Below are positions 3,337 to 52,877 of a DNA stretch of 64,000 nucleotides, piece by piece. This DNA is from an uncultured virus (IMG/VR IMGVR_UViG_3300037440_000410) (lineage: Duplodnaviria; Heunggongvirae; Uroviricota; Caudoviricetes), in the IMG/VR virus record IMGVR_UViG_3300037440_000410. One strand, 5' to 3'. A program made the translations under genes and the position numbers. The first letter of the stretch is position 1. Each line of letters begins with the position of its first letter. The notes beneath the pieces are model-generated. The model saw only the letters and a list, made by a program, of their open reading frames with translations, did no database searches and had not been told where the DNA came from.

Positions 3337-3603
3337 CTACGCCTCTTCGTCCTGCGGTTCCTCGGCGGCGATGTTGCGAAGACCGGCGATCATGTCCCGG
3401 ACCCCAGTCCAGTAACGCGGGTCGGCGGTCGGGTCGGGGACGTTGTCAAGGATGCCCTGATAGCGGTCGGCCGTCTCATGCAGGACCGCCGCCCGGAAGG
3501 CGTCGATCTTCTCGCTCGCACGCCCCGAGATGGCGGGCGAGTTCTCCTTGCCCTGCATCGCGAAGGCGTACAAGTCCTTACGGACGTCAACGGTCGTGGT
3601 CAC
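3337..3603 (-). CDS. Hypothetical protein
   Basis: AAGGAG RBS; coupled to the upstream GIY-YIG gene. Confidence 0.65.
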   Translation of the reverse strand: MTTTVDVRKDLYAFAMQGKENSPAISGRASEKIDAFRAAVLHETADRYQGILDNVPDPTADPRYWTGVRDMIAGLRNIAAEEPQDEEA

Positions 3604-4154
3604 TGGCTCTCCTTGCTGATGAGCTTGAAATGGGTGAGGGGCCTCCCTGGCCGCGACCTGAGCTTGCCGACCTCCTCGACCAGTCCTTCGCTCTCAAGCC
3701 TCCGAACATGCGCTTGCGCGGACCCCTTCGGTACGCCCAACTCGTCTTCGAGATCCTGGAGACAGAACGGCTGGTCGCCGAACCTCTCCTGGGTCAACTC
3801 GTAGAGACGGGCGCCGGGGAAGCGTGAGCTGTTGTACGGGACGCCGTTGAACACGGTGTTGTGACGTGGGTGCTCGGCCCTGATCGCTTCCATCTCGGCC
3901 CGCTCCGCCGCCGCCCGCGACGGGAACCAGACGACTCGGAACCTCTCCACGTGGGGCCACCACGACTTGCCCGCGTGCGTGTACCAGCGCTTGAGGGGTT
4001 CTCGGCAGATGCCGATGTAGAGCAGATCGTCGGCGGCGTCGAAGAACCGGTACAGGGCGACGTGGTCCGGGTGGGGACTGGTCGGCAGTGCTCCGGTCAT
4101 CTCGGTTGCTACGCTCACGGGGCGCCTTTCTCTTGCTTGGGTCGGGCTGCTCAC
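3600..4154 (-). CDS. GIY-YIG nuclease domain fused to C-terminal winged HTH
   Basis: ALYRFFD...LLYIGI...R...AEMEAI...HN pattern; C-terminal LEDELGVPKGSAQAHVRRLESEGLV; exact start uncertain. Confidence 0.8.
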   Translation of the reverse strand: MSSPTQARERRPVSVATEMTGALPTSPHPDHVALYRFFDAADDLLYIGICREPLKRWYTHAGKSWWPHVERFRVVWFPSRAAAERAEMEAIRAEHPRHNTVFNGVPYNSSRFPGARLYELTQERFGDQPFCLQDLEDELGVPKGSAQAHVRRLESEGLVEEVGKLRSRPGRPLTHFKLISKESQ

Positions 4155-4187: not shown

Positions 4188-4577
4188 TCATTCGGTGGGT
4201 TCGATGCCGGTGACGTCGAACCCGAACGGCACGTCTGCGCACGCGTCGTAGATCTCCTGGCGGATCTGCTCCGGCGCGACCTCCGCGTCCGCTTCGACCT
4301 GCATCGTCAGGACGTAGGTCTTCATCCCGGTCTCTCCTTGCTGCTGGGGCGGATACCGCCGCTTCTTGCGTGGCTGCTTGGGGTTCGCCTCGAAGAACGC
4401 GACCACCTCGTCCTCACGGAACCGTGGCCGCGTACTGCCCTCGCCCTCAACAGGGGAAGGGAAGACGCCAGTCCGCCGGTACGTGTGGACCGTCTGGCGG
4501 CTGACCCCGTGCTCTGCCGCGATCTCGGTGACGGTCATCAAGCGCGGGCTCCCCTCTGGCTCAGGGCTCTTGGGCAC
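4188..4577 (-). CDS. AlpA/excisionase-type HTH regulator divergent from the transfer operon
   Basis: LMTVTEIAAEHGVSRQTVHTYRRTGVFPSP; GGAGG RBS before GTG at 4577. Confidence 0.8.
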   Translation of the reverse strand: MPKSPEPEGSPRLMTVTEIAAEHGVSRQTVHTYRRTGVFPSPVEGEGSTRPRFREDEVVAFFEANPKQPRKKRRYPPQQQGETGMKTYVLTMQVEADAEVAPEQIRQEIYDACADVPFGFDVTGIEPTE

Positions 4578-4592
4578 GGCAACATCCTCCCT

Positions 4593-4628
4593 GATCTGCT
4601 TGACGTTGTAAAGCAGATCGTGCACTCT
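4593..4628 (+). promoter_or_regulatory. Transfer-operon promoter with overlapping operator palindrome
   Basis: TTGACG(4600)-N17-CACTCT(4623); inverted repeat GATCTGCTT-N9-AAGCAGATC at 4593-4619. Confidence 0.6.
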
Positions 4629-4861
4629 GGAATGGCACCAACAGAACGGCCCGGCGTGAGTTCGCACCTCACGCCGGGCCAGCCACCCGCCTGATCTCAC
4701 CAGGGAGTGACCTTGCAAGAGCGTATCGGCCAACCCCAAGGCCAACCCACCCCCACGCACGAGCGTCCCGGCACCGACATGCCGCAACGCCACCCCGTCC
4801 CCGCCCCGCGCCCGCACCTCGAGCCCGCCCAGCTCCCCCGCCGCACACCCGGCGGCTCCCT

Positions 4862-4993
4862 GTGAGTGACATCGACGCCGACATCGACGCCGCCTGGGCC
4901 CTCACCCAGCAACGCATCGCCGCAGCCACAGCCGCAGCCACAGCCGCCGCCCAGGCCGCACGCGCCGCCGCCGAACAGGCGGCCACCCGATGA
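4862..4993 (+). CDS. Small Ala-rich peptide
   Basis: VSDIDADIDAAWALTQQRIAAA...; ATGA coupling to the next ORF. Confidence 0.5.
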   Translation: MSDIDADIDAAWALTQQRIAAATAAATAAAQAARAAAEQAATR

Positions 4994-5133
4994 CCTGCTG
5001 CGGCAAACCCATGCAAAAAGACGGCAACCAATACGTCTGCCGCAAATGCGGCGCCTGGACCGACCCCGGCACCAACAACCCGACCACCCACACACTCGCC
5101 ACCCACCACTTCACCAACACCAACGAGAACTAA
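4990..5133 (+). CDS. Small zinc-ribbon peptide
   Basis: MTCCGKPM...CRKCG. Confidence 0.55.
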   Translation: MTCCGKPMQKDGNQYVCRKCGAWTDPGTNNPTTHTLATHHFTNTNEN

Positions 5134-5167
5134 CCAGCCACCCACCAGACCCAGCCGAGGACACCCA

Positions 5168-5362
5168 ATGTTCGGACGCAAAAACAGCGACAAGGCACCC
5201 ACCGGCCGCGAGGCCGTAGCCCGCCGACTCCAGCAGGCCGGCCTCACCGTGGCCGGCGAACACGGAAGCCGGGCCGCCAACCGTGTCTCGCAGGTACTCG
5301 GCTGCGGACGCATCGAACTGTGCGACAACCCCACCTGCCCGAACTGCGCACCCACCAGCTGA
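5168..5362 (+). CDS. Small Cys-containing protein of the transfer region
   Basis: GAGG RBS; C-terminal CDNPTCPNC. Confidence 0.65.
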   Translation: MFGRKNSDKAPTGREAVARRLQQAGLTVAGEHGSRAANRVSQVLGCGRIELCDNPTCPNCAPTS

Positions 5363-5447
5363 CCGACCGGCCGCCGGGCCCGTCTCGCACGGGCCCGGTC
5401 AAAGGGAACCGCGCCAGCGCTTCCGACCCGAACCCAAGAGGACACCC

Positions 5448-5621
5448 ATGTCGAACCCGACCGCCGCCAACGTGGCTGCCGCAGCCGCCCACCACGCCCG
5501 CCAAAACCCAACGCAGGAGAACCTCGCCGTGGCGAACGCGATCTGCGTGGACGCCATCAAGGCCGGCGCAACCGGCACCGAAATCCAGCAGGCCACCCAA
5601 ACCCCCCGCCGCAACCGCTGA
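5448..5621 (+). CDS. Small hypothetical protein
   Basis: GAGGA RBS; ATG at 5448. Confidence 0.6.
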   Translation: MSNPTAANVAAAAAHHARQNPTQENLAVANAICVDAIKAGATGTEIQQATQTPRRNR

Positions 5622-5631
5622 GGGGCTCGCC

Positions 5632-5823
5632 ATGGCACCCACCCCCGCCCGCCGGCCACGCGGCCACTCACCCCTCACCACCACCCTCCGAACCCCCCTC
5701 GCCCGCTACGGCTTCACCCTCCTCGCCTTCCTCGCCCTCACCACCGCCCAGACCATCCCGTTCCTCCTCACCGCCGCCGTCGCCACCTACGCCTGGCGCA
5801 ACCGCCCCCACCGCCGCCGCTAG
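5632..5823 (+). CDS. Small membrane protein (Spd-like)
   Basis: Hydrophobic segment followed by basic tail; position upstream of tra genes. Confidence 0.55.
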   Translation: MAPTPARRPRGHSPLTTTLRTPLARYGFTLLAFLALTTAQTIPFLLTAAVATYAWRNRPHRRR

Positions 5824-5840
5824 ACCACGGAGCCGTCACC

Positions 5841-6818
5841 GTGAAAAAGCTCACCTGGGTCCAGAAGACCATTCTCGGAGCCGCCAGCCTCCCCATGATC
5901 GCGGTCGGCGGCTTCGGAGGATGGGGCACCTACACCAACATCGTCACCGAGTTCGGCCGCGCCGCCACAGCCGCAGGAGCCGTCGCCGCTGGCGAGGGCG
6001 TCACCCTCGTCCTGGCCCTCGTCCTCCTCGTCCTTGCCATGTTCGGCCAGCCCTCCCCCCTCGTTGTACGCGCAGGGCTGTGGCTGGCTCCCCTCGCCGC
6101 CTCGGTCATGGGCGTTGCGGTTGCCGACAACATCACCGAACGGATCGTGTACGCCCTCGCCCCGCTCGGAATGTGTGGCGCCGCGGAAGGTCTCGGTTTC
6201 CTTGCCCGCCGCACCGTCGTCTACGTGACCAACGTCGATATCGAGGCGCAGCGGCGCAACGCGGCGATCCTGCGCCGTATCGCGTACCACCGGGCGCGCG
6301 CGGAGCGCCACCCCTGGGTGTGGGTGCGGAAAGTGTCGGCGCTCGTAGCGTGGCGGCTCATGGGGCGGCTCGGCCACGCCGACGCCACACTCGGTAGCGC
6401 CCTCACCGACGTACAGAACACCCGCATCGTCGACGGCGCCAACACGGCGCTCGCCGCCATGCTCAGTAGCGCCACCGAACTCCCGGCCGCTACCGCACGC
6501 ACCGCCGTAGCGCCGGCGCCCGCCACACCGAAGGCGCCACGCACCACCGCCCCGGGCAAGACGGCTACGCCTACCGCCGACGGCGCCACGCTCACCCCGG
6601 ATGCCGCTCCCGACGATGCGGTCCTGTGCTACGAGCCCGGCAGCCCGCAGTACGTCGTCCGCGAACTGTGGCTCCGTCTCAACCACCGGCCGACCGAAAG
6701 TGCCGTCGTCGAAGCCCTCGCCGCCGCAGCACTGCCGAACTCCCGCGCGCAGGCCGGGAAGATCCGCCGCCAGGTCGAAGCGGAGAACCCGCGACTGCCC
6801 GGACCCCGCGCAGCCTGA
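5841..6818 (+). CDS. Multi-TM spread/transfer protein (SpdB-like)
   Basis: About four N-terminal TM segments, helical middle, Pro/Ala linker; context before traA/traB. Confidence 0.65.
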   Translation: MKKLTWVQKTILGAASLPMIAVGGFGGWGTYTNIVTEFGRAATAAGAVAAGEGVTLVLALVLLVLAMFGQPSPLVVRAGLWLAPLAASVMGVAVADNITERIVYALAPLGMCGAAEGLGFLARRTVVYVTNVDIEAQRRNAAILRRIAYHRARAERHPWVWVRKVSALVAWRLMGRLGHADATLGSALTDVQNTRIVDGANTALAAMLSSATELPAATARTAVAPAPATPKAPRTTAPGKTATPTADGATLTPDAAPDDAVLCYEPGSPQYVVRELWLRLNHRPTESAVVEALAAAALPNSRAQAGKIRRQVEAENPRLPGPRAA

Positions 6819-6942
6819 CCCTGACCGTGACTGCAGCCCGACTGCAGTCACAACCCCGCACCCCCTCTGAACAGCACAAACCCACACCGCCCCCGGTACG
6901 ACTGCAGTCACAGTCCCAGTCACAGTGAAGGAGGCCCCGCCC

Positions 6943-8394
6943 GTGGCCCGCACCAAGACCGCCCCCGAACAAACCCCCACCACCCCCGAGCAGCCGCCCG
7001 AACCCCCCACACAAGAGCAGCCCCGGCCCTCCCCGGTCCTCGCCTGGCCGGCCGAGTGGCCTGTCCCCGAACTGCCCGCGGAGAAGCGGCGTCGTACCCG
7101 CGGGCTGCCCATGGCCCCGGTCCTCGCTGGGGCGGGCAATGGCACGACTCTGGTGGCGACTGCCGCATATTCGGCGGGCGGTCCGGTGGCGGCCGCTGCC
7201 GCAGGGGTAGTCGTAGCGGCCGGCGCCACAGCGGCGGTGCTGCGCCGTCGGGCGGCCGTGCGCCGTGGCGTGGCGGCCCGCACCCGTAGCGCCACGCTGG
7301 GCGGCCAGAAGGGTGGCGGTAGCGGCCTGCGTAGCGGGTCTGGAGGCGGCGCTACGCGCGGTCGTGGCGGCATGACCCGTAGCGCGGGTGGCGGCCGTAG
7401 CGGGGCTGGTAGCGCCCTGCGTGGCGGGTCGGGGCGTAGCGGTAGCGGCCTGCTTTCGGGAGGCTCGCGTAGCGGTACGGGTGGCGGTGGCCGTAGCGGC
7501 AACGGTCGTTCTCGTGGCGGTCTCCTTCGTCCCGGCACCGGACGCCACACGCTGAAGCCCGGCCGCGGTAGCGGTCTCGGAAAGGACTCTGCCCGCCGTC
7601 AGAAGAAGGCCGCCGAGAAGGCCGGGAGGAGGGCGGCGGAGAAGGCGCTGAAGCAGGCAGCCAAGACCGCCGCCGCGAACACCGCCACGTCCGGGAAGCG
7701 TCACACCCTGAAGGCCGCGGCCGGGCGTACCACTCGCGCGGCCCGTGCTGCGTGGAACGCTGCCCGCCCCCACGCCGCCAAGGCGACGAAGGCTGTAGCC
7801 CGCCAGACCAAGCGCGCCCGCGGAGCACTCTGGGACGGCCTGTGCGCGACCGGCGCGGCCGCGTGGACGTGGCTGCGCTCGGGACGGCGTGCCGCCCTCG
7901 ACCGCCTCAAATCCGTGTGGAAGCGCCGCCGCAAGGACCGCACCACCCCTGACACCCCGACCACCCCGGCCGTCGCCGACACGGTGCGACGCCCCGCCAA
8001 CCCGACCACACCCACACCTGGAGGAACCCGCATGTCCGGTGGAGGACACCACTTCGTCGCCCCCGCAATGGAACTCGCCCGCGCCGCCGCCCACTACCAG
8101 CCCACCGGCATGCTCCAAGTCGGCGCCGACTTCGCCGGCCTGGAAGAGGCACTGCGCCTCCACGCCGAAGCCATGAAGATCACCGTGGAGAACGCGGACG
8201 CCACCCAGCCCCTCGCCCCCCAGATCGTCGAACTCATGCGGCAGATCCACGGCCTCCAACTGAAGGCCGCCGAACTCGCCGGAGAGTTGCAGCCCGCGTT
8301 CCGCCAGCTCCACGACGTCGACATCAGCCGCCTCGAAAACCCCCGCAAGGGCGCCGCAGGCGAACGCATGTGGGACGTCTCCTCCAACCTCTGA
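6943..8394 (+). CDS. Plasmid transfer protein TraA-like
   Basis: AAGGAGG RBS; TM segment, Gly/Arg/Ser-rich linker, helical C-terminal domain; directly upstream of traB. Confidence 0.6.
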   Translation: MARTKTAPEQTPTTPEQPPEPPTQEQPRPSPVLAWPAEWPVPELPAEKRRRTRGLPMAPVLAGAGNGTTLVATAAYSAGGPVAAAAAGVVVAAGATAAVLRRRAAVRRGVAARTRSATLGGQKGGGSGLRSGSGGGATRGRGGMTRSAGGGRSGAGSALRGGSGRSGSGLLSGGSRSGTGGGGRSGNGRSRGGLLRPGTGRHTLKPGRGSGLGKDSARRQKKAAEKAGRRAAEKALKQAAKTAAANTATSGKRHTLKAAAGRTTRAARAAWNAARPHAAKATKAVARQTKRARGALWDGLCATGAAAWTWLRSGRRAALDRLKSVWKRRRKDRTTPDTPTTPAVADTVRRPANPTTPTPGGTRMSGGGHHFVAPAMELARAAAHYQPTGMLQVGADFAGLEEALRLHAEAMKITVENADATQPLAPQIVELMRQIHGLQLKAAELAGELQPAFRQLHDVDISRLENPRKGAAGERMWDVSSNL

Positions 8395-8414
8395 CCCCCG
8401 ATCGGGAGCACGCT

Positions 8415-10493
8415 GTGAAGCTCGACTGGGACGCCAAACACGGCCCCGTCACCGGCCCCATCAACACCGGGATCGCCGCCCTCGCCGTCGGCTACGCCGG
8501 CCACACCACGGGCATGCCATGGGAATGGGCCGCCCTCACCGCGGCCGCCGGCGCCGCAGGCACGCACATCGCGGGCCGTCGCCGTCAGGTCACGGCGGCC
8601 ACCCTCGGACTGCGGGCAGCCGGATGGCTGGGCGCGGGCGGCTGGTGCTCGTGGGCCATCGCCAACGGGCCGTGGACACAAGCCGGTATCGGCTCCCTGC
8701 TGGTCGGGGCGCTCGGCCTGGGCGCGGCAATGGCAGGGGCACACCACGTCGAGCAGAAGGCGGAGGAGCAGCGCGCCGTACAGGAGGCCGCCGCCCGCCG
8801 GGCGTCGCTCGACGGGAAACGCCAGAAGATCGCCGACGAGTGGGAAGACCGCATCGTCCGCGTCTGCCACGGCACCGCCGTGCAGATCATCGGCGTCGAG
8901 GAGTGGGAATCCGGAGGCGGGCGCACCCTCGACGGGGAGTGCGGGCCGGGCGGCGCCACGTGGAAGACCATCAAGGCATTCGAGGACGCCCTCGCCTCCG
9001 ACGCCAAACTTCCCGAAGGCTGCGGCGTCGAGGTCAAGCCCGGGACGAACCGGGGCGCGTTCCTCCTCGACATCGCGACCGTCAACCGGCTCGTCGGCGA
9101 GGACATGTACCCCGACGACTACAGCCCCCTCACCCTCAACGGGCCGCTCCCACTCGGCGTGTTCCGCGACGGCACCAAAGCGGAACCGAACATCCGTCAG
9201 CTCACCGCCACGTTCGCCGGCCGGAAAGGCTCCGGCAAAACCAACCTGTCGAACGTGGCGCTTGCCGGGTGCTGCCGCATGACCGACAACCTCACCTGGG
9301 TCATCGACCTCAACGGCGGCGGTCTCGCGCTGCCCTGGCTGCACGCCTGGCACAAGGCAGGCAAGCCAGGGCGCCCGCCGGTCGACTGGGTCGCCGACAC
9401 TCCCGCCAAGGCGCTCGCCATGGCGCAGGCGGCACTCAGGATCGCGAAGGCCCGCAAGCCCGGCTACAAGCATCTGGAGATCGAAGCCAACGACGACAAA
9501 CTCCCCGTCAGTCCGCAGGTGCCCGGGATCCTGATCGGCGGAGACGAGATCGCGGAGATCTTTTCCCCGCGCGCCCGCCGCGATCCGGTACTACGGGAGA
9601 CGGGCGACACCCTCATCCAAGTGGTTGAGCTCGCCCGCGCAGTCGCGGTGAACGTCCTGGCGACCGCACTGCGCGTCACGCAGGACGTGCTGTCCGAGCC
9701 GCAGCTGATCGTCCAGTCGGGGCTGAAAGTCGCGATGAAGTCCGACGAGCGGGAGATGGCCTACTTCTTCGGCTGGGACGACCGCGCCAACCCGGCCGAC
9801 GCCCCCTACCCGGGATGCGGGTTCATCAAGGTGTTGGACGAGCCGGCGCGCCCGTTCAAGGCGTACCGGATCAAGCCGGACCAGATCGCGGCGATCGTCG
9901 CCGCCACATCCCAGCTGCGGCCCGAGCTTGACGACCTGTCCCGGCAGGCTGCGGGGGAAGCGTATGAGCAGCGGTGGATGGGCACCGATCACCTCCTCGG
10001 TGTCGGCACGGCACACCTGGCGCCAGCGGCCGAGGCAACGAGCGAGCCGGCCGCCCCGCCGCGCGGCCGTGGCGTGACCGCCGACTGGGGTACCAGCCCG
10101 GCCGGGGGTGACGCGCAGGCGTCGATCGATCAGGCGGAGGCCGCCAGGCGGAAGCTGCACGAGGCGATGAACGAGAGCCGGCACGACGGCGACCTCGACG
10201 CCCAGTTCATGGACATCCTCGCCGGTGGCGGCGTCACCTGGAAACCGCCCGCCGTCGAGCCGCCCGCCGAGCCGGGTGACGACAAGGACCCGCGCAGGGA
10301 GCTGGTGTACGACATCGTCGTTGCGGCCGGCCCTGCCGGGATCGGCCCGGAGGGGATCCGCAAAGAGTTCGCCCGCCTGCACCCCGGGCTCGAAGTGCCG
10401 CATGCCGCCACGATCGGCCGCTGGCTCGGCCCCGACCCGCGCGTCCACAAGCCCCGCTTCGGCCGCTACGCCGTCCGCCCCGACCAGAGCTGA
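8415..10493 (+). CDS. traB: FtsK/SpoIIIE-family conjugative DNA translocase TraB
   Basis: N-terminal TM segments; Walker A GRKGSGKT; WVIDLNGG; Walker B ILIGGDE; C-terminal wHTH-like region. Confidence 0.88.
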   Translation: MKLDWDAKHGPVTGPINTGIAALAVGYAGHTTGMPWEWAALTAAAGAAGTHIAGRRRQVTAATLGLRAAGWLGAGGWCSWAIANGPWTQAGIGSLLVGALGLGAAMAGAHHVEQKAEEQRAVQEAAARRASLDGKRQKIADEWEDRIVRVCHGTAVQIIGVEEWESGGGRTLDGECGPGGATWKTIKAFEDALASDAKLPEGCGVEVKPGTNRGAFLLDIATVNRLVGEDMYPDDYSPLTLNGPLPLGVFRDGTKAEPNIRQLTATFAGRKGSGKTNLSNVALAGCCRMTDNLTWVIDLNGGGLALPWLHAWHKAGKPGRPPVDWVADTPAKALAMAQAALRIAKARKPGYKHLEIEANDDKLPVSPQVPGILIGGDEIAEIFSPRARRDPVLRETGDTLIQVVELARAVAVNVLATALRVTQDVLSEPQLIVQSGLKVAMKSDEREMAYFFGWDDRANPADAPYPGCGFIKVLDEPARPFKAYRIKPDQIAAIVAATSQLRPELDDLSRQAAGEAYEQRWMGTDHLLGVGTAHLAPAAEATSEPAAPPRGRGVTADWGTSPAGGDAQASIDQAEAARRKLHEAMNESRHDGDLDAQFMDILAGGGVTWKPPAVEPPAEPGDDKDPRRELVYDIVVAAGPAGIGPEGIRKEFARLHPGLEVPHAATIGRWLGPDPRVHKPRFGRYAVRPDQS

Positions 10494-10501
10494 GGAACGC
10501 C

Positions 10502-10942
10502 ATGCTGCCCGAGCACTACCAGAGCTACCTCCAGCCCGGTCCGTACCGGGCCCCGGCGGCTGTCGAGATGTACGACGAGGCCGACCCGATCGTTCACGTT
10601 CCCGACCCCTACGATCCGAACCGGTCCGTTGCCGTGCGGCGTTCCTCCCTCCAGCCCGCAGTTCCCGCCGCGCCCCGTGATCTCACCCCGCAGCCTGTCC
10701 TCGACCCGCTCGCGCAGCGCATCCTCGCCGGCGGCATCGGAGTGGGCGCGGCCGGCGCCGGTGTCGGCTTCGGGCTCGGGCAACTCGCGGCCGGGATCGC
10801 GCTGATGGGAACGTCCGGGCTGGCGCTCCTCGTCGGCCTACTCCTCGCCGCACGCGTGCTCGGGCCGCGGCAAGTGACCCATGTCCGGCAGACGGTCCAC
10901 AACCGCGCCAGCTGGTTCGGAACGACTACAACCAAAATGTGA
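10502..10942 (+). CDS. Membrane protein, Spd-like
   Basis: GAGGA RBS; Pro-rich N-terminus then Gly-rich TM hairpin; follows traB. Confidence 0.6.
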   Translation: MLPEHYQSYLQPGPYRAPAAVEMYDEADPIVHVPDPYDPNRSVAVRRSSLQPAVPAAPRDLTPQPVLDPLAQRILAGGIGVGAAGAGVGFGLGQLAAGIALMGTSGLALLVGLLLAARVLGPRQVTHVRQTVHNRASWFGTTTTKM

Positions 10943-11072
10943 GAGGACACTCGAACCAGATGGCCGCGAGCACCGTTTGACAGTCCTGCCAGACTGGGGC
11001 GCCGGGACCGCCCGGCACAACGAAGGCCACCAGACTCCCCCCGTCTGGTGGCCTTCGCCCATTCCCGCCCGG

Positions 11073-16374: not shown

Positions 16375-17388
16375 ATGCGCATCCTCCTCACCGGCGCCGC
16401 GGGGTTCGTCGGCTCCCACGTCCTCGCTCACCTCCTCGCCAACACCGACGCCGAGATCGTCGTCCCCTGGACACTCCGCCACCACGGCAACAGCCAGCGC
16501 CTCGCCGCCGCTATCGACCAGGCCCCCGAGCCCGGCGCCTGGAACGACCGCGTCACCACGTTCATGCACGACCTCGCCACTCCGATGCCGGCGACGCTTG
16601 TCGACGAGATCGGACCCGTCGACTACGTCTTGAACATCGCCTCCGAGTCCCACGTCGACCGCAGCATCTCCGACCCGGCGCCGTTCATCCGGAACAACGT
16701 CGAGTTGATGCTGAACGTCCTCGACTACGCCCGCCAGGTCCGCCCGCGGATGGTGCTGCACATGGGCACCGATGAGGAGTACGGGCCCGCGTACGGGGAC
16801 TACAAGCACCGCGAGTGGGACACGGTCCTCCCCTCGAACCCTTACAGCGCGTCGAAGGCGGCGCAGTCTGCGATCGCCACCTCGTACTGGCGGACGTTCG
16901 GGGTGCCGGTCGTACTGACGCGGACGATGAACCTGATCGCGCCGGGCCAGGACGCGGAGAAGTTCGTGCCCACCGTGATCCGGAAGATCCTCGCTGGGGA
17001 GACAGTCCAGATCCACGCCAGCCCCGAAGGCGTGCCCGGCTCCCGGCACTGGATCGACGCCCGCGAGTTCGGCGCCGCCTGGCTGCACCTGCTGAACACG
17101 GTCGAGCCGCAGATGTACCCGGACGCCGACCGTCCGTCGATGTTCCACGTCGTCGGCGAGGAGCGGACGAACCTCCAGATCGCGCAGACGATCGCCGACC
17201 TCCTCGGCCGCCCGCTGCACTACGAGCTGGCCAGCTTCCATTCCAGCCGGCCAGGCCACGACCTCAGGTACGCACTCGACGGATCGAAGCTGGCCGAGGC
17301 GGGCTGGGCGCCGGGCAGGTCGATCGAGGAGACCCTCTCCGACATCGTGAAGTGGTACGCCAACAACCCGGCATGGCTCGCCGCATGA
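16375..17388 (+). CDS. NDP-sugar 4,6-dehydratase (RmlB-like extended SDR)
   Basis: TGAAGFVG, ASESHVDRSI, TDEEYG, YSASK, RPGHDLRYALD. Confidence 0.9.
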   Translation: MRILLTGAAGFVGSHVLAHLLANTDAEIVVPWTLRHHGNSQRLAAAIDQAPEPGAWNDRVTTFMHDLATPMPATLVDEIGPVDYVLNIASESHVDRSISDPAPFIRNNVELMLNVLDYARQVRPRMVLHMGTDEEYGPAYGDYKHREWDTVLPSNPYSASKAAQSAIATSYWRTFGVPVVLTRTMNLIAPGQDAEKFVPTVIRKILAGETVQIHASPEGVPGSRHWIDAREFGAAWLHLLNTVEPQMYPDADRPSMFHVVGEERTNLQIAQTIADLLGRPLHYELASFHSSRPGHDLRYALDGSKLAEAGWAPGRSIEETLSDIVKWYANNPAWLAA

Positions 17389-17609
17389 GCGCGCCCGCTG
17401 ACGATGAGCGCCCATACAGGCAGCTCGCCCGCCTATCGCTCCAGCACTCGGCAGACCGACTGAACGCCATTCCCCAGGGACGGGTGGACACCGCCGAGAT
17501 GCAGTGCCACGCCACCCTGGCCCAGGCAATCGCCAGTCTCGCCATGGCTCAGGCCCTCATCGAGATCGGCGACGCCCTACGCGCGCTGGGGGAGCAGTCA
17601 GATGGGTGA
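17385..17609 (+). CDS. Hypothetical protein
   Basis: Coupled to both neighbours. Confidence 0.55.
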   Translation: MSAPADDERPYRQLARLSLQHSADRLNAIPQGRVDTAEMQCHATLAQAIASLAMAQALIEIGDALRALGEQSDG

Positions 17610-18279
17610 CCTGTACCGCGCCGCGGTCATCCCGACGCGGGACCGTCACGACATGCTCGCCGACTGCATCAACTCCGTCGTGGACCAGGTGGACCGGGTC
17701 ATCGTCATCGACAACCTCTCTGAACCGCCGATCGATCCGGAGCCGTGGCACGGCAAGGTCGGCGTGGTCGCGATCCCGATCGACCCGCCGAACATCAGCA
17801 CCCTGTGGAACGTCGGCATCGCCCTCGCCGACGCATCCGCCCACGCCGAGCAGGCCGCCCGGTGGGACATCGCCGTCCTCAACTCCGACGTCACCGTCCC
17901 GCCCGGCTGGATCGACGCACTCTCTACGGCAATGCGCTCCACCACCGCGGTCCTCGCCTACCCCGACCAGCACGGCGGCCACCGGCAAATCCTCCACACA
18001 AAGGCCGACCCGATCGACCTCCGGCAACGGATCACCGGCTACGCCTACCTGCTCCGCGGCGAAGCGGGTCTACGGCTCGACGAGTCCATGGCCTGGTGGT
18101 ACAGCGACGACTCACTCGACTGGGAGGCGCGGGAGCAGGGAGGAGCGCTCCTCGTCCCGGGCCTGGCGGTCGAGCACCGCTGCCCGAACGGCTCGATGTA
18201 CGAACGGCCAGAACTGAAGACGCAGGCCGGCCTCGACCGCGAAACCTTCCGTAAGAAGTGGGGCCGGACCCCATGGTGA
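17602..18279 (+). CDS. Glycosyltransferase, GT2/GT-A
   Basis: AVIPTRDR, VIVIDN, VLNSD, WWYSDD. Confidence 0.85.
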   Translation: MGDLYRAAVIPTRDRHDMLADCINSVVDQVDRVIVIDNLSEPPIDPEPWHGKVGVVAIPIDPPNISTLWNVGIALADASAHAEQAARWDIAVLNSDVTVPPGWIDALSTAMRSTTAVLAYPDQHGGHRQILHTKADPIDLRQRITGYAYLLRGEAGLRLDESMAWWYSDDSLDWEAREQGGALLVPGLAVEHRCPNGSMYERPELKTQAGLDRETFRKKWGRTPW

Positions 18280-18289
18280 GGAGCACCCG

Positions 18290-19105
18290 TTGAAGATTGC
18301 AGTAACCGGTGGTGCCGGATTCTTCGGCCGCGCCACCATCGAAGCCGCAGAGAACGCAGGGCACGACGTGTGGGCGTTCGACCGCACCCAAGGCATGGAC
18401 ATCCTCGGCAGCCTGGACGCGCTCGCCGACGCCGACACCGTTATTCATCTCGCGGGCGTCCTCGGCACGTCCGAGCTGTTCGACATGGCGGAGACCGCTA
18501 TCCACGTCAACGTCATCGGCACGCTCCGCATCCTGGAGTGGTGCCGGGATCATGACGCCCGCTACGTCGGGGTGTCGATGCCGGACCCGTTCCCGTCGGT
18601 GTATACCGCGACGAAGGTCGCCGCGCGCAGGCTGACGACGGCATGGCATCACGCCTACGGCCTCCCCGTGTCGACGGTCCGGGCGTTCAACGGCTACGGC
18701 CCCCACCAGCACTACGGGCCCGGCCACCCGCAGAAAATCCTGCCCACGTTCGCCCGCGCCGCGTGGGAGGGCCGGCCGTTGCCCATCTGGGGTGATGGCG
18801 CCCAGACCATGGACCTCGTCCACGCGGACGATGTGGGGCAGATGCTTGTCGAGGCCACGGCGTTCGGGGATGACCAGACGTTCGACGCGGGCACCGGCGT
18901 GGCGGTGACCGTGAGCGAGCTGGCGGAGTTCGTGCTGAAGGAGACCGGGTCGAAGGCGGGTGTGGAGCATCTGCCGATGCGTGCGGGTGAGGTGCCGGTG
19001 CAGATCACCGCGAAGGGTGAGGGCTGGGACCGGCTCGACTGGAAGCCCGAATTCTCGTGGGATCGGGTTGCTGAGACGGTGAGGTGGTACCGCGATGCCC
19101 GCTGA
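18290..19105 (+). CDS. NAD-dependent sugar epimerase/dehydratase
   Basis: TGGAGFFG, IHLAG, YTATK, FNGYGP; TTG start after GAGGAG. Confidence 0.88.
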   Translation: MKIAVTGGAGFFGRATIEAAENAGHDVWAFDRTQGMDILGSLDALADADTVIHLAGVLGTSELFDMAETAIHVNVIGTLRILEWCRDHDARYVGVSMPDPFPSVYTATKVAARRLTTAWHHAYGLPVSTVRAFNGYGPHQHYGPGHPQKILPTFARAAWEGRPLPIWGDGAQTMDLVHADDVGQMLVEATAFGDDQTFDAGTGVAVTVSELAEFVLKETGSKAGVEHLPMRAGEVPVQITAKGEGWDRLDWKPEFSWDRVAETVRWYRDAR

Positions 19106-19379
19106 TCTACGCGAGCAGTATGCGGCTGCAGCCGAACGTTGCGGGTTCGATGTCTTCGATGCTGGCGAGGTTGCTGACGCTGTCCTCGCAATCCGGGACG
19201 TTGAACTTGAGCGGGCAACGCGGCAGGTAGCAGCGGTCAAGGCCGTGACGGGCTGGCTGATGGAGGTCACCCGCAGCCCGGAACCAGACCCGGTACGCCG
19301 TGATGGGACACGCCGCATCGTGCACATGGTGAACCTTGCGCTGGACGACCCCGACGCCACCTTGGAGTACTACCAATGA
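19095..19379 (+). CDS. Hypothetical protein
   Basis: Overlaps both neighbours; less biased codon usage. Confidence 0.5.
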   Translation: MPADLREQYAAAAERCGFDVFDAGEVADAVLAIRDVELERATRQVAAVKAVTGWLMEVTRSPEPDPVRRDGTRRIVHMVNLALDDPDATLEYYQ

Positions 19380-20035
19380 CCGCTGATATCGCGATCGTGA
19401 CCGCATGCTACGACGCCTACGACACAGTCAAGCCCGTCATGCCGCAGACCGGTGCGGATGTGGAGTGGATCCTCGTCACTGACACCGTGCCGGACGCCGA
19501 AGCTGCGCGCGGCTGGACGGTTGTGCACGAGCCGCGTCCGGATGTGCCGCCGAATCGTGCGGCGAAGGCGCCCAAGTTCGAGCCGTGGAAGTACACGGAC
19601 GCCCCCGCGAGCATCTGGATCGACGCATCGTTCCGGGTCGTCTCCCCGGACTTCGCAGCTGCGGCGATGGGGTACGCGAAGCCGATTGCGCAGTTCGTGC
19701 ATCCGTGGCGGGACTGCCTGTTCGCGGAGGCGGTGGAGATTGCTGCGCTCGGCATGGACCCGGAGGGTGTGGCGGGGTGGCAGACGGCCCGGTACCGGGA
19801 GGCGGGGCATCCGGTGGGTTGGGGGTTGTGGGCGTCGGGTGTGATCGTGCGGCGGCATACGGCGGCTGTTCGGCGGATGGGTGCGGCGTGGGCGCGGGAG
19901 GTGGCGGGCGGGTCGGCGCGGGATCAGGTGTCGCAGCCGCACGTCCTGCGGGAAGCCCGACTGCGGCCCGCTTCTCTGCCGGGGACGCATCTGGCGAACG
20001 CGTGGCTCAAGTACGAGGGAAGCGGACGGCACTGA
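19376..20035 (+). CDS. DUF616-like glycosyltransferase
   Basis: TACYDAYD, SIWIDAS, HPWRDC, RDQVS motifs. Confidence 0.75.
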   Translation: MTADIAIVTACYDAYDTVKPVMPQTGADVEWILVTDTVPDAEAARGWTVVHEPRPDVPPNRAAKAPKFEPWKYTDAPASIWIDASFRVVSPDFAAAAMGYAKPIAQFVHPWRDCLFAEAVEIAALGMDPEGVAGWQTARYREAGHPVGWGLWASGVIVRRHTAAVRRMGAAWAREVAGGSARDQVSQPHVLREARLRPASLPGTHLANAWLKYEGSGRH

Positions 20036-20313
20036 TGAGCGAGCAGACACCGAGCGTGGGCCGGATCGTCCACTATCAGAGCTACGGCACCCCGGGCGGC
20101 GAGTACACCTCCCAGTGCCGGGCCGCGATCGTCGCCGCCGTCTACAGCCTCGACAACCCACACCCGGACCTCGAGGTACACACCGAGGCCGAAGGCGCCG
20201 AGTGGGTGGCGCTCGCGGTGCTGAACCCGAGCGGCATGTTCTTCAACGACGCGTGCCACGACGAGCTGCGCAAGCAGGGCGGCACGTGGCATTGGCCGGA
20301 GCGTGTCGGATGA
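20035..20313 (+). CDS. Conserved small phage protein
   Basis: PSVGRIVHY...RAAIV...GTWHWPER. Confidence 0.7.
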   Translation: MSEQTPSVGRIVHYQSYGTPGGEYTSQCRAAIVAAVYSLDNPHPDLEVHTEAEGAEWVALAVLNPSGMFFNDACHDELRKQGGTWHWPERVG

Positions 20314-20747
20314 GACTGGAGATCGGCGGCGGGAAACTCCTGCCAGCAGGCTGGACCAACCTCGACCCCAACCACGGCACCGGCCAATGGCGGCGCCTCG
20401 CACAAGACACGCCATGGCACACCGGCGACCACACCGTCGAGGCCATGCGCGCCAGCCACGTCATGGAGCACATCCCCGCCGGTGACCCGCGCATCGCGGT
20501 ACTCAACGAAGCCCACCGCGTCCTCCGCCCGGGCGGCGTGTTCGAGATCCGCGTACCCAACTGCCTGTCCGGGACGTGGCACGCCTACGCCGACCCCACC
20601 CACGTCTCCTTCTGGTGCGTGGAGTCGTTCCACTACATCGACGGGACGAAAGCCGCCCACGCTGATTACGGGCTGCGGCCGTGGAAGACGCTGGAGCTCC
20701 GCATTCAGGGCGACAACGAGATCTTGTGGAAGGGGACGCCGCGGTGA
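20310..20747 (+). CDS. SAM-dependent methyltransferase (type 11-like)
   Basis: LEIGGG, ASHVMEH, EAHRVLRPGG, DPTH. Confidence 0.85.
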   Translation: MRLEIGGGKLLPAGWTNLDPNHGTGQWRRLAQDTPWHTGDHTVEAMRASHVMEHIPAGDPRIAVLNEAHRVLRPGGVFEIRVPNCLSGTWHAYADPTHVSFWCVESFHYIDGTKAAHADYGLRPWKTLELRIQGDNEILWKGTPR

Positions 20748-21331
20748 GCGAGCCGCTCGTCACGGTCGTCGTTCCGTACCACGCGGCCCGCGTGAAGAAC
20801 GGCATGCTCAAACGCGCCGTCGCGTCCGTCAACGCGCAGACCATCCCCCACCTGCTGATCACCGCCGAAGACACCGACAGGCAGGGCGCCGCCGCCACCC
20901 GGCAACGCGGCCTCGACCAAGTCGCCACCGAGTGGACTGCGTTCCTCGACTCCGACGACGAGATGGACCCCACCCACCTGGCGCAGCTCCTCGCCTGCGC
21001 CGAGACCACGGGTGCCGACTACGTGTACCCGTGGTTCCGCGTGAAGGGCGGGACGGACCCGTTCCCGATGTTCTTTGGGAAACCCTTCGACCCCGCCAGC
21101 CCGAACTCCACCACGATCACCATTCTCGTGCGCACCGAGCTGGCGCAGCAGGTCGGGTTCACCCGCGACCCGGCGACACAGGCGAGCGGTGAGGACTTCC
21201 TGTTCACGAAAGGCTGCGTCGCCGCCGGAGCACACATCGTGCACCTGCCCCGGCGTTCATGGACCTGGCATCACCATGGCGGAGGAAACACCAGCGGCCT
21301 CCCAACCCGCGGCGACGCCCGCCGCCGCTGA
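20744..21331 (+). CDS. Glycosyltransferase, GT2/GT-A
   Basis: VTVVVPY, AFLDSDD, GEDF. Confidence 0.85.
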   Translation: MSEPLVTVVVPYHAARVKNGMLKRAVASVNAQTIPHLLITAEDTDRQGAAATRQRGLDQVATEWTAFLDSDDEMDPTHLAQLLACAETTGADYVYPWFRVKGGTDPFPMFFGKPFDPASPNSTTITILVRTELAQQVGFTRDPATQASGEDFLFTKGCVAAGAHIVHLPRRSWTWHHHGGGNTSGLPTRGDARRR

Positions 21332-21373: not shown

Positions 21374-23761
21374 ATGACCACCGAGGACAGGGCCCACGTC
21401 GCACAGCGCGCAGCCGCCGCGCTCGACGCCCTCCTCACACCACGCTGGCAGCCACTCCCACACCAGAACCCACCCCCAGGCAACTGGTACGGCTGGCTCC
21501 TCCTCGCCGGCCGCGGCGCCGGCAAGACCGACGCCTGCGCCGAATACATCGCCCGCCACATCGCCGGACCACCCTGCCTCCCCGGCCCAGTACCCCACTG
21601 GGTCGGCATCATCGCCCCCACCCAAGGCGACGCCGTCACCGCCTGCGTCACCGGCCCCTCCGGCATCAAAGCCCACGACCCCACCGCCGTCGGCCCGATC
21701 ACCACGGTAGGCGGCACCGTCGTCCGCTGGCCCAACGGATCCCAAGCCAAGCTGTACGGCGCGAACAACCCGGAAGACGTCGAACGGCTCCGCGCCGGCG
21801 GCAACACCTGCGTGGCCTGGCTGGAGGAGTTCGCCGCGTGGCGGCACATGCAGGACGCCTTCGACCAACTCCGCTTCGGCCTCCGCTCCGGACCCCGGCC
21901 ACACTGGGTCGCCTCCACCACACCGAAGCCCAAGCCCCTACTGAAGCGGCTCATGCAAGGCGAGATCCCGAACGTCGTCACCACCACGGCGACGATGTAC
22001 GACAACCCGCATCTACCGCAGCACATCCGCGACATGCTCGAAGACGCCTACGCCGGAACCGACCTCGGCGAGCAGGAGCTGTACGGCCGGATCCTCGACG
22101 AGATCAAGAACGCGCTGTGGCGGCGCAACACGATCGCCGCCGGCCGGATCCGGTTGGAAGATCTGCCGGACATCATCCGCACCACCGTCGGCATCGACCC
22201 GTCGGGCGGCGCGGGCGAGCAGGGCATTGTGGTCACGGCGAAGTCCGGGCTGCTGCTCCCCGGAATCCTTCCCGGCCCGCGCGAGGACTTGGACGAGGCG
22301 ATCCCGGTGAGGCAGCCGCGCCCGCAGCATCACGGATTCGTCCTCGACGACCGCACCTGCCAACTGCCGCCGGAGGGCTGGGGTCAGCGCGCCGTGCAGG
22401 CGGCAATTGAGTGGGAAGCAGACGATTTGTGCGTAGAGGTCAACTACGGAGGGGACCAAGCGATTGCAGTGATCCGCACCGCGCTGGAGAAGGCCGGCGT
22501 GGACATCCCGGTGCGGAAGGTCCGGGCTACGCACGGGAAGGCGGTGCGGGCTCAGCCGGTTGCGGCACTGGCGGCACAGGGGCGCATGCATCACGCCGGA
22601 GTGTTCCCTGAGCTGGAGGATCAACTTTGCACCTGGTTCCCTGAGTTGGGCTGGTCACCGGACAGGCTGGATGCGTGCCTGGCCGCCGGGACGATGGTGA
22701 CCACGCGCAGGGGGCTCGTCCCGATCGAGCAGGTGACGACTACCGACCAGGCGTGGACGCGGGCCGGTTGGCGCCGCGTGACGGGGTCGGGGATGACGCG
22801 GCCGGACTCCGAAGTGATGCGCGTCGTCACGACACATGGGGAGTTCACGGCCACTTCGGACCACAAGGTATGGACCGAGCAAAATGGGTTCATTCGAGTG
22901 GACGCAATGGCGTGGGGCGATAGAATTAATGTATGCCCAAGCAGACTGAATCGGTTGTTTTCAACGGCGTCACGTTCACTCGCTTCCCTCTGTCGAAGTC
23001 TCGCTCGTCAAGGGTCTACTTCACGGCCTACGCCAACAGCCGCCGAATACCCGGAATGGGACAGCTCCACGTCGAGGTCTGGAAGGCCGCGAACGGCGTT
23101 GAAGAAGTTCCTCGAGGGAGCGTCATCCACCACGTGGACTTCAACCCGCTCAACAACGACCCCGGAAACCTCCGCTGCGTCACCCGCAAGGAACACGCGC
23201 AGATTCACGAGCAGCAGATGGACCGCGACAGCCCTGAGTGGCTGGAGCACCTGGCGAGCATCCGCCCCATGGCGGCCGAGTGGCACCGCACCGACGAAGG
23301 CCGGGAGTGGCACCGACAGCACGCCAAGGACATCTACGCCAAGCAGGAGTACCGGACCGAGGCGTGCGACGAGTGCGGGAAGCCGTACGAGACTCGCACT
23401 CTCGGAAAAACTCAGTACTGCTCTTCTGCGTGCAGCAGGCGAGTTGCTGACCGCGCCGGCAGATATACGAAGCACGCAGACTGTCCGATCTGCGGGCGGG
23501 GGTTCCGGCAGAGCAAGTACCAGCTTGTTCCGGAGACGTGTTCACCCTCATGTGGTGCGTACCTACGTGCTCGAAACAAGGCAGCCCGTGTACGACCTGA
23601 CGATCGAGAGTGAGCACGAGTTCTACGCGAACGGGATTCTCGTGCACAACTGCGTGTGGGGGCCGTGGCATATGAAGCTCGTTGGCACGACCTCGACTGG
23701 TCAGGGTTCGTTGGGTGGGGATCTGGCCCGGAAGCAGATCGTTGGGGGGCGGCTACGGTGA
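21374..23761 (+). CDS. terL: Terminase large subunit precursor containing an intein (about 470 aa after splicing)
   Basis: Walker A AGRGAGKT, Walker B WLEE, TTP coupling motif, nuclease GIDPS, EVNYGG and SPDRLDA. Confidence 0.93.
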   Translation: MTTEDRAHVAQRAAAALDALLTPRWQPLPHQNPPPGNWYGWLLLAGRGAGKTDACAEYIARHIAGPPCLPGPVPHWVGIIAPTQGDAVTACVTGPSGIKAHDPTAVGPITTVGGTVVRWPNGSQAKLYGANNPEDVERLRAGGNTCVAWLEEFAAWRHMQDAFDQLRFGLRSGPRPHWVASTTPKPKPLLKRLMQGEIPNVVTTTATMYDNPHLPQHIRDMLEDAYAGTDLGEQELYGRILDEIKNALWRRNTIAAGRIRLEDLPDIIRTTVGIDPSGGAGEQGIVVTAKSGLLLPGILPGPREDLDEAIPVRQPRPQHHGFVLDDRTCQLPPEGWGQRAVQAAIEWEADDLCVEVNYGGDQAIAVIRTALEKAGVDIPVRKVRATHGKAVRAQPVAALAAQGRMHHAGVFPELEDQLCTWFPELGWSPDRLDACLAAGTMVTTRRGLVPIEQVTTTDQAWTRAGWRRVTGSGMTRPDSEVMRVVTTHGEFTATSDHKVWTEQNGFIRVDAMAWGDRINVCPSRLNRLFSTASRSLASLCRSLARQGSTSRPTPTAAEYPEWDSSTSRSGRPRTALKKFLEGASSTTWTSTRSTTTPETSAASPARNTRRFTSSRWTATALSGWSTWRASAPWRPSGTAPTKAGSGTDSTPRTSTPSRSTGPRRATSAGSRTRLALSEKLSTALLRAAGELLTAPADIRSTQTVRSAGGGSGRASTSLFRRRVHPHVVRTYVLETRQPVYDLTIESEHEFYANGILVHNCVWGPWHMKLVGTTSTGQGSLGGDLARKQIVGGRLR
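22676..23650 (+). mobile_element. Intein (325 aa) in the terminase nuclease motif DRLDA|CVW
   Basis: Block A CLAAGTMV, block B TATSDHKVW, block F VYDLTI, block G ANGILVHN followed by +1 Cys. Confidence 0.93.
22933..23613 (+). CDS. HNH homing endonuclease with C-terminal Cys4 zinc modules, nested out of frame in the intein
   Basis: LHVEVW...IHHVDFNPLNNDPGNLRCVTRKEHAQIH; CDECG...YCSSAC and CPICG...TCSPSC; own ATG and TGA. Confidence 0.88.
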   Translation: MPKQTESVVFNGVTFTRFPLSKSRSSRVYFTAYANSRRIPGMGQLHVEVWKAANGVEEVPRGSVIHHVDFNPLNNDPGNLRCVTRKEHAQIHEQQMDRDSPEWLEHLASIRPMAAEWHRTDEGREWHRQHAKDIYAKQEYRTEACDECGKPYETRTLGKTQYCSSACSRRVADRAGRYTKHADCPICGRGFRQSKYQLVPETCSPSCGAYLRARNKAARVRPDDRE

Positions 23762-45132: not shown

Positions 45133-45380
45133 GCAGCCCACTGGACGGACGCATCCGCGCACTGGCCCGCGACGAAGCCACCATGCTCCTCGCCGGCGCA
45201 TCAGCCGGATACGACGACATAAACACGGACCGGGTGACTGCGCTGGAGGAGGAAGTCACCAGCCTGCGCAACACACTGCTGCGCGCCGAGGCCCGCATCG
45301 GCGCCTTGGAGAAGGCAGCCGGTCAGGCGGAACAGGAGGCGCGGTCGGCCACGCGACGGACCAGGGGGTCGGCCGGGTGA
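45129..45380 (+). CDS. Small coiled-coil protein
   Basis: Coupled to the holin and GT genes; heptad repeats. Confidence 0.6.
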   Translation: MSSPLDGRIRALARDEATMLLAGASAGYDDINTDRVTALEEEVTSLRNTLLRAEARIGALEKAAGQAEQEARSATRRTRGSAG

Positions 45381-52813: not shown

Positions 52814-52877
52814 GGCCGCCCCCTGCGCATGATCTTCCGTGTGGTATTTCCACTGGGAGCGCCATGCTTCGGACAGC

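Follow-up and report, generated by a model that had tools for sequence, protein, structure and literature searches.

The 64,000-nucleotide stretch analysed here (the window) belongs to IMG/VR record IMGVR_UViG_3300037440_000410, an uncultured virus of the Caudoviricetes. Four of its genes, g7, g8, g9 and g10, form the conserved core of a cassette, as judged by tblastn of the window proteins against related loci, and g9 encodes a TraB/FtsK-type double-stranded DNA (dsDNA) translocase (Table 1). A first-pass annotation of this DNA had proposed a TraB conjugation module inside a virion-encoding temperate phage; homology, conservation and a candidate cognate cis site now indicate that the module is genuine. 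New here is a repeat element at 6827-6927 that tracks the recognition helix of the translocase.

By Pfam and PHROG scans the window is a complete temperate siphovirus, and its host group is Streptomyces. Early phage genes lie 5′ of the cassette, and a block of sugar genes followed by TerL and the virion genes lies 3′ of it, which is the setting between early and packaging genes that had been described. No second integrase or Rep gene was found among the open reading frames (ORFs) scanned in the first 16 kb (Pfam, PHROG, NCBIfam), again as first reported.

Table 1. Features of the cassette region and of the surrounding phage genome (HTH, helix-turn-helix; TM, transmembrane; RBS, ribosome-binding site)
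Feature	Position	Strand	Description
HTH_17/MerR-type DNA-binding protein	4188-4538, ORF open to 4817	-	Pfam HTH_17, phrog_66
Perfect inverted repeat	4647-4681		14-bp arms (14 pairs, 11 GC); divergent intergenic region
Small ORF	4862-4993	+	43 aa
Small ORF	4990-5133	+	47 aa, Cys-rich, zinc-ribbon-like
Small ORF	5168-5362	+	64 aa, phrog_29738
Small ORF	5448-5621	+	57 aa
Small ORF (g6)	5632-5823	+	63 aa, one TM segment (hydropathy)
g7	5841-6818	+	325-aa polytopic membrane protein, conserved C-terminal ~60-aa domain; phrog_16651, 9.3e-54
Candidate clt-like element or operator	6827-6927	.	g7-g8 intergenic region, before translocase operon
Block A	6827-6851		GTGACTGCAG ccc GACTGCAGTCAC; just past g7 stop
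Conserved box	6867-6883		CTGAACAGCACAAACCC
Block B	6900-6927		GACTGCAGTCAC AGTCCC AGTCAC AGTG; directly 5′ of g8 RBS
g8	6943-8394	+	483 aa; Pro-rich N-terminus, one TM segment, basic region, conserved C-domain
g9, TraB/FtsK-type dsDNA translocase	8415-10493 (alternative start 8370)	+	692/707 aa
g10	10502-10942	+	146 aa, two hydrophobic segments; 3′ of translocase in relatives
Perfect inverted repeat	11021-11057	.	15-nt arms; after g10
TerL with intein	21374-23761	+	Pfam Terminase_6N 1.2e-20, Intein_splicing, Hint_2, Terminase_6C
Portal			phrog_776, 1e-122 (PHROG)
Major head protein			phrog_777, 4e-126 (PHROG)
Tyrosine integrase	51920-52915	-	Pfam Phage_integrase 1.7e-25; phrog_1 1.5e-44

The translocase g9

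The g9 product matches phrog_31069, 'FtsK/SpoIIIE-like protein', at 1.6e-86, and contains a Walker A motif (GRKGSGKT) and a Walker B motif (DE). Residues G289 and K290 of Walker A and D392 and E393 of Walker B are invariant in an alignment of 76 relatives, in agreement with the earlier description of a full-length TraB with intact Walker motifs. Searched against the PDB, the family profile built on these 76 sequences recovered FtsK (2iuu, 1.8e-12) and TcpA, the coupling protein of pCW3 (1.5e-11), and it also matched the type VII secretion system ATPase YukB. The single g9 sequence gave no match among PDB sequences, Pfam gave none to FtsK-gamma (PF09397), and NCBIfam gave none for the cassette proteins.

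An AlphaFold2 (AF2) model of g9 (mean predicted local distance difference test score, pLDDT, 88.5) consists of four N-terminal helices including a long stalk (residues 28-47, 51-71, 76-99 and 104-165), an alpha/beta motor (171-545) and a C-terminal winged helix (641-702) with the helix PHAATIGRWL. The N-terminal part, where hydropathy also places a hydrophobic segment, is predicted to associate with the membrane. Foldseek searches with the model returned FtsK motors first (E 9e-16, TM-score 0.60-0.66), with TcpA reaching a TM-score of up to 0.75, while a fold search of BFVD returned mostly unnamed FtsK-like viral proteins. Profile comparison by hhalign aligned g9 with pIJ101 Tra over 255 columns (probability 97.8, E 8e-13). 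On the strength of these profiles and of the model, g9 is a distant FtsK-superfamily dsDNA motor with the domain plan of TraB.

Relatives of g9 are numerous. An exhaustive phmmer search collected 690 representative clusters (50% identity) at E ≤1e-3 and 308 at E ≤1e-30, and a word-indexed search found more than 120 clusters at least 62% identical, from Streptomyces chromosomes and metagenomes, all of them 'hypothetical' and without a Pfam domain. Pairwise ratios of nonsynonymous to synonymous substitution rates (dN/dS) for g9 were 0.15-0.40.

At the 3′ ends of some related translocase genes (L030, L037, L041/L038) a second, FtsK-gamma-like winged helix follows the first, the likeness being judged by eye on the motif ...STQFGS.SMLQRKLR...; the plasmid homologue in L014 matches Pfam FtsK_gamma (PF09397) at 4e-19.

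Covariation of a repeat element with the recognition helix

Blocks A and B of the intergenic element are mutually inverted repeats. Exact matches to the 8-mer GACTGCAG were found at three sites in the 64 kb; all three fall within 6829-6909, and two are palindromic. Relatives share a fixed layout, in which block A after the g7 stop is followed by a spacer of ~60 nt with the CTGAACAGC box and then by block B, whose hexamer-periodic repeats end a few bases before the g8 RBS. At 13 of the 24 loci the best long-range inverted repeat outscored 99 or more of 100 shuffles. Across four host genomes (5.6-10.9 Mb, 34.5 Mb in total) the 12-mer GACTGCAGTCAC is present in five copies, four of which are in the element. 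In each genome the motif thus occupies a single locus, unlike the dispersed skewed 8-mer of chromosomal FtsK.

The repeat word was found to pair with the helix class of its own translocase in 23/23 loci readable for both, with motif classes assigned by eye. The word GACTGCAGTC accompanies the helix PHAAT[I/L]GRW at 14 loci, one of them the NBC_01177 element with a translocase of only 55% identity, and GACGACGAC accompanies a PSRSAITDW-like helix at six. The remaining pairs were each seen at one locus: GACTGCGACT with PNTTVIARW, GATCCTGATC with PSPETIGRW and GACTCCGAC with PNPDVIGRW. A 24th locus (L036) has a word and a translocase cut by the contig end; seven loci without upstream DNA, and loci below 48% identity save two kept as outgroups, were left out of the set.

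A tree of the motor was built with IQ-TREE from the first 540 residues, excluding the winged helix-turn-helix (wHTH), of 24 loci and the two outgroups. The word/helix classes are interspersed on this tree and require seven changes; each of 200 shuffles of the labels required more. One class sits inside a clade of another that has 100/100 support, on a tree much of whose backbone is unresolved. Taken at its simplest, the covariation of helix and word fits a clt-like docking site for the pump.

Folding of single sequences joined block A to block B with z of -2.1 to -4.5 in four of five cases, the fifth (L005) favouring a local hairpin. RNAalifold predicted no pairs on the intergenic alignment of 13 sequences (A2), a result explained by the poor quality of that alignment between word types.

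In phage Hiyaa (L011), hexamer-periodic repeats (AGTCAC/AATCAC/GATCAC) occupy 3800-3845, upstream of the translocase region. They underlie the 3′ end of the annotated gene 100 on the opposite strand, and the + strand ORF starting there has 61 codons.

Conserved partner genes of the translocase

TM segments are predicted in all cassette proteins (AF2 model, hydropathy). The membrane protein g7 matches no Pfam family even at E 10. It is 64-77% identical in relatives, of which L019 and L020 retain only the C-terminal ~60-100 residues, and in related plasmids and phages its slot is taken by DUF2637 proteins; the g7 C-terminus aligns weakly with the DUF2637 protein of L001 (hhalign probability 60.7, E 8e-5). 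The first-pass annotation had called this protein SpdB-like. Its position next to the translocase operon and its general architecture agree with that name, with two to three strong hydrophobic segments against about four TM helices in SpdB/SpdB2, and a language-model look-up, which serves as a lead only, placed g7 near the HTH_SpdB_C, SpdB_N and DUF2637 clusters (score 0.96). Homology to SpdB itself did not follow: hhalign of the g7 family against pIJ101 SpdB gave a probability of 0.8%, and a BLASTP link (E 0.006) covered the TM stretch only.

The g8 reading frame, previously labelled TraA-like, is real and its start is probably at 6943, because the start GTGGCCCGCACC is conserved, but nothing links its product to any TraA. 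The middle of the protein is a Gly/Arg/Ser-rich stretch of ~220 aa that is very basic (K+R 51, D+E 5). The C-terminal domain of ~115 aa shows 72% mean column identity in 23 sequences (alignment A4), above the conservation of the motor, and matched no known family. Homologues of this domain are encoded directly upstream of the translocase in phage Hiyaa, in the Thermobifida phage P1312 (gp064) and in Streptomyces plasmids. Hiyaa gp101 is the domain as a separate protein of 122 aa (39% identity, E 4e-21), and in the Streptomyces plasmids it occurs twice at the end of proteins of ~690 aa. This gene linkage suggests that g8 may bind the pump.

In NZ_CP108596.1 (L001) the annotated gene for the g8 homologue covers just its final 243 codons (19264-19992); an ORF with a conserved RBS and start spans 18520-19992 and crosses the Gly/Arg-rich low-complexity stretch.

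Downstream of the translocase, g10 is 42-80% identical in 11 loci (tblastn), with dN/dS of 0.21-0.48. For all four cassette genes the pairwise dN/dS against four relatives was 0.13-0.48, indicating that each is under purifying selection. The inverted repeat after g10 possibly marks the end of the operon.

Distribution of the cassette among integrating phages

Related loci were sampled from viral-contig scans (34 loci) and from a genome-contig scan (five loci, in contigs of 198-960 kb); the locus scan used the closer alignment set A3, A1 being too diverse. TerL or a portal gene lies at most 10 kb downstream in 20 of the 29 loci whose translocase is at least 48% identical. Eighteen of these were identified by PHROG and two (L008 and L018) by tblastn. 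Since tblastn with hallmark proteins of the window and of NBC_01177 was too insensitive for the terminase tally, 36 large downstream ORFs, restricted to 380-700 aa, were scanned against PHROG. With this size filter neither TerL nor portal was found in the other nine loci. One of the nine lacks downstream sequence, and in the genome of another, L017, a portal with 77% identity is found ~15 kb away. The terminases beside the cassette belong to at least three PHROG families (phrog_2, phrog_38 and phrog_9/19179).

The extent of one integrated relative could be read directly. In S. fumanus JCM 4477 a 51-bp direct repeat, at G005:C1:547879-547929 (the 3′ end of tRNA-Arg(TCT)) and 600734-600784, brackets a prophage of 52.9 kb in which the integrase lies at 548.0 kb, the cassette at ~568.5-572.2, TerL at 574.5 and the portal at 576.1. 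In the window, direct repeats flanking the cassette are 13-mers only, at chance level, and one that was examined does not extend.

Among the observations that the first-pass annotation had named as speaking against it are att sites of the module's own and an assembly chimera, and it had called for a survey of relatives with dN/dS. The survey found the same layout in 20/29 loci, with the low translocase dN/dS given above, and the S. fumanus att pair spans integrase, cassette, TerL and portal together. The conserved position and the single att pair around cassette and virion genes thus show that the cassette is neither a chimera nor an inserted actinomycete integrative and conjugative element (AICE). 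AICEs are defined by Int, Rep and Tra modules without virion genes (PMC3218068), whereas the window has a full virion module and no Rep among the ORFs scanned. Judged by these loci, the cassette belongs to the normal gene content of a mosaic group of integrating phages and is under selection there.

Comparison with known systems

The closest named relative is NZ_CP108596.1, a circular 51.7-kb 'plasmid' of Streptomyces sp. NBC_01177, whose TraB is 55% identical to g9 over 97% and which shares the cis-element word and the helix of the window. This circle is an entire phage genome that encodes all the virion genes as well as a serine recombinase, and its cassette lies just upstream of DUF4352-HNH-TerS-TerL. 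Where the window has g7 and a tyrosine recombinase, it has a DUF2637-type membrane protein and the serine recombinase, and the two TerL proteins also differ.

Precedent for plasmid-phages in Streptomyces, which had been invoked for this module, exists in pZL12 and pFP4. The former is described as a 90-kb plasmid prophage with ParAB (PMC4487206), and its three-gene locus pZL12.73-.72-.71 is cited for conjugal transfer (PMC3583192, PMC4487206). Like the window, pZL12/phage ZL12 is a Streptomyces element that makes virions, and in both the genes run membrane protein, large protein, FtsK-like translocase, small gene, an order also found in Streptomyces plasmids and in phages Hiyaa and P1312. The pZL12 translocase is 28% identical to g9 over 51% of the query (E 4e-19; 5e-34 in a second comparison), while pZL12.73 and pZL12.72 show no detectable similarity to g7 and g8 (E 0.01 cut-off, L013). 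Unlike the plasmid pZL12, the window encodes a tyrosine integrase, and its relatives are integrated in chromosomes; no ParA/ParB was found among the window ORFs scanned. The second, pFP4, is described as a plasmid-phage that propagates and conjugates in episomal form and in addition makes infective particles (PMC4170104); it is compared with the window at the level of this description.

In the pSVH1/pIJ101 class of transfer systems, TraB is described as an FtsK-like motor that has a membrane part at its N-terminus and recognises DNA through a C-terminal domain, membrane partners are encoded in a translationally coupled operon, and TraB and Spd membrane proteins form a spreading complex (Thoma 2015, PMC4447253). 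The cassette resembles this TraB/clt/Spd arrangement in the plan of its motor, its short repeats and its membrane partners. It differs in that identity between g9 and pIJ101 Tra is only ~21% over the 255 aligned columns, and in that the partner genes lie upstream of the translocase in the window and downstream of it in pIJ101. The same source suggests that SpdB2 homologues on phiC31 and VWB help in the spread of phage DNA (PMC4447253); compared by description, those phages are cited for an Spd-like protein only, whereas the window also has a motor and a putative cognate site.

Translocases of phrog_31069 are also found in the Streptomyces phages Hiyaa, Keanu, Galactica and Spocter and in the Thermobifida phage P1312, and are 33-36% identical to g9 over 54-79% of the query. 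Hiyaa has neighbours like those in the window, a DUF2637-like membrane protein and the g8 C-domain homologue gp101, as well as upstream hexamer repeats. The FtsK-like genes of the Hiyaa-type phages and P1312 are annotated by name and without functional comment, and a literature search found no paper on the Hiyaa-type translocases. One phage paper guesses at a replication role for an FtsK-like gene (PMC11536984). Beyond pZL12 and pFP4, the search found no paper that ties phage FtsK-like genes to TraB-type transfer.

A model for capsid-independent DNA movement

Taken together, these results are consistent with a model in which a TraB-type apparatus moves phage dsDNA across membranes or cross-walls independently of the capsid, a reading drawn from sequence, structural models and analogy to which we assign a probability of about 55%. 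In this model g9 acts as a membrane-anchored, FtsK-like motor that would be a hexamer, as FtsK and TraB are, and its C-terminal winged helix would dock on the inverted blocks at 6827-6927, as the covariation of helix and word suggests. ATP hydrolysis would then drive the circular phage genome, unprocessed, through a channel in a membrane or cross-wall that may be built with g7, g8 (through its TM anchor, basic DNA-binding-like region and C-domain), g6 and g10. The phage DNA would arrive in a neighbouring mycelium, as in conjugation, in other compartments of the same mycelium, or in both. For movement between mycelia the donor would be a lysogen or an induced hypha, and virion production would continue alongside.

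Several observations weigh against this model. Pfam, including FtsK_SpoIIIE (PF01580), gave no match for g9 even at E 10, while pIJ101 Tra matches PF01580 at 9.3e-10, and g9 is no nearer to pIJ101 Tra than to chromosomal FtsK; the 'TraB' label therefore expresses functional analogy and positional homology to a pZL12-type locus. The covariation comprises 23 related loci with classes assigned by eye, three of the five classes being single-locus. The position of the blocks would suit an operator for autoregulation, with the same domain binding it, or a stem in the mRNA equally well. Known clt regions are described as direct 8-bp repeats recognised by the C-terminus of the cognate TraB (Thoma 2015, PMC4447253), whereas the element of the window consists of inverted blocks around a ~60-nt spacer before an RBS. 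A GntR-type TraR/KorA gene is present in pIJ101, but the cassette has no such kil-kor partner, the only regulator near it being HTH_17/MerR-like. Finally, no tyrosine or large serine recombinase was detectable in Hiyaa. That phages of this type carry the module without a detectable integrase hints that it also serves lytic growth, and its role may therefore lie there and not in transfer from lysogens.

Among the alternatives, segregation is the one that survives best, though we regard it as unlikely. Here an FtsK/SffA-like pump at closing septa would drive excised or replicating phage genomes into prespore or daughter compartments by way of its recognition site, giving vertical inheritance or a carrier state and no passage to other cells. 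The FtsK motor fold with a sequence-specific wHTH in the g9 model, the single cis site per genome and the second FtsK-gamma-like domain of some relatives (PF09397 in the L014 homologue) would suit such a role. However, a prophage that is integrated in the chromosome is passed on with it and has no need of a pump of this kind, conjugal transfer is what the best-matching characterised locus, that of pZL12, is cited for, and the dedicated membrane partners resemble the Spd/TraB arrangement.

It is improbable that the translocase is a replication or packaging helper which resolves concatemers or feeds them to terminase. The proximity of TerL or portal in 20/29 loci is what such a helper would predict, but the cassette accompanies at least three unrelated TerL families and is thus not co-adapted to one packaging machine; moreover, it encodes TM helices and membrane partners, and plasmids also carry this cassette, with virion genes absent from the stretches of them that were viewed. 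A role in superinfection exclusion or defence, with a membrane FtsK/HerA-like ATPase expelling or blocking incoming DNA, is less probable again. ATPases of the HerA/FtsK fold do occur in defence systems, and distant Foldseek matches to g9 include HerA-Sir2; however, the best folds are FtsK and TcpA rather than HerA, none of the 11 proteins scanned matched PADLOC, and a self-encoded, covarying recognition site would be superfluous. That the cassette is a functionless passenger or artefact, an inserted AICE or plasmid fragment or an assembly chimera, is already largely refuted: the nearest non-phage relatives are plasmid genes and neighbouring genes differ among relatives, but the position is held in 20/29 loci with dN/dS below 0.5, there is no Int or Rep beside the cassette, whose flanks share only chance 13-mers, and a single att pair encloses the whole S. 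fumanus prophage.

If the pump does move genomes between hyphae, temperate Streptomyces phages would possess a second way to infect that needs no capsid, and neither loss of the receptor nor defences acting at adsorption would affect it. Models of how prophages spread, of host range and of how genes flow among soil actinomycetes would then change, and the boundary between prophage, AICE and plasmid would be blurred beyond the two cultured plasmid-phages. More tentatively, a large lineage of integrating temperate Streptomyces phages might routinely infect neighbouring hyphae or compartments as naked dsDNA by way of a TraB pump and a private docking site, with helix and site swapped together into 'transfer specificity groups'. 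Such groups would keep co-resident phages, plasmids and AICEs from mobilising each other. The helix/word pairs represent a testable DNA-recognition code for TraB-type winged helices and natural specificity variants for orthogonal transfer systems in Streptomyces genetics.

Upstream region and other features of the phage genome

Upstream of the cassette, the HTH gene diverges from the + strand operon. Its ORF (4188-4817, - strand) contains an HTH_17/MerR domain (E 6.6e-7; phrog_66, 4.9e-17), and the 116-aa form matches Pfam HTH_17 at 7.5e-7; the gene is more likely 4188-4538, because the domain begins at an internal Met. The first-pass annotation had seen here an HTH regulator with an operator palindrome and, beyond it, small spd-like ORFs. 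Regulator and palindrome are both present, while a TraR/KorA-type (GntR) identity and conservation with the cassette did not hold up: by tblastn the gene lies beside the cassette in two of 14 related loci, L001 and, partly, L003. The five small ORFs are likewise present but have no detectable link to Spd proteins. Like the HTH gene, most of them are not conserved along with the cassette (tblastn, related loci); the 63-aa ORF is kept in L016, L017 and L020. A hairpin lies among the small ORFs at about 5375-5396.

Window genes were called from third-position GC, and G+C is 65-74%. The virion module runs from TerL to about 44.9 kb, and in addition to portal and major head protein the scans recognised genes for the major tail protein, head-tail adaptor, tape measure and endolysin. 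In TerL, the Intein_splicing and Hint_2 domains are placed between Terminase_6N and the end of the protein (Pfam). RecE/RecT and two WhiB-like genes are also encoded. The integrase is flanked by phage genes on either side and early genes lie at both window ends, which implies a non-integrated (attP) arrangement of a genome larger than 64 kb; contigs with the window's own translocase reach 73,028 bp. For the attP of the window, ARAGORN found no tRNA and no tRNA T-arm-like word was found near the integrase. Among the virus records searched, the nearest (G001) has no match to TraB.

Adjoining the cassette, a GIY-YIG endonuclease fused to a winged-helix domain and resembling homing endonucleases is encoded at 3600-4154 (- strand), with homologues at scattered other positions in L003, L005 and L010. 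The gap between cassette and TerL is occupied by a sugar-modifying block (16375-21331) with two NAD-dependent epimerase/dehydratases and family 2 (GT2) glycosyltransferases, and past the lysis region are another glycosyltransferase and a glucuronyl C5-epimerase-like gene (45377-46456, 48016-49500). The block is common to L008, L010 and L017 and may act in modifying glycans, either on the virion or on the host envelope.

Within the virion module, a 976-aa protein (26471-29401) has an N-terminal RNA-ligase-like part (phrog_2659, 4e-28), and other parts match phrog_859 (labelled portal protein) and phrog_18402 (labelled head maturation protease). The early region encodes a HIT-family hydrolase (2312-2746, 1.3e-15) and a vWA-TerF-like protein (61795-62841, Pfam 4.5e-59). 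At 63132-63406 the 12-bp tandem repeat GGGCTCAGGTCG is present in ~23 copies with 91% matches; it lies within a DUF6745 gene (62900-64000) and thus codes for a tetrapeptide repeat.

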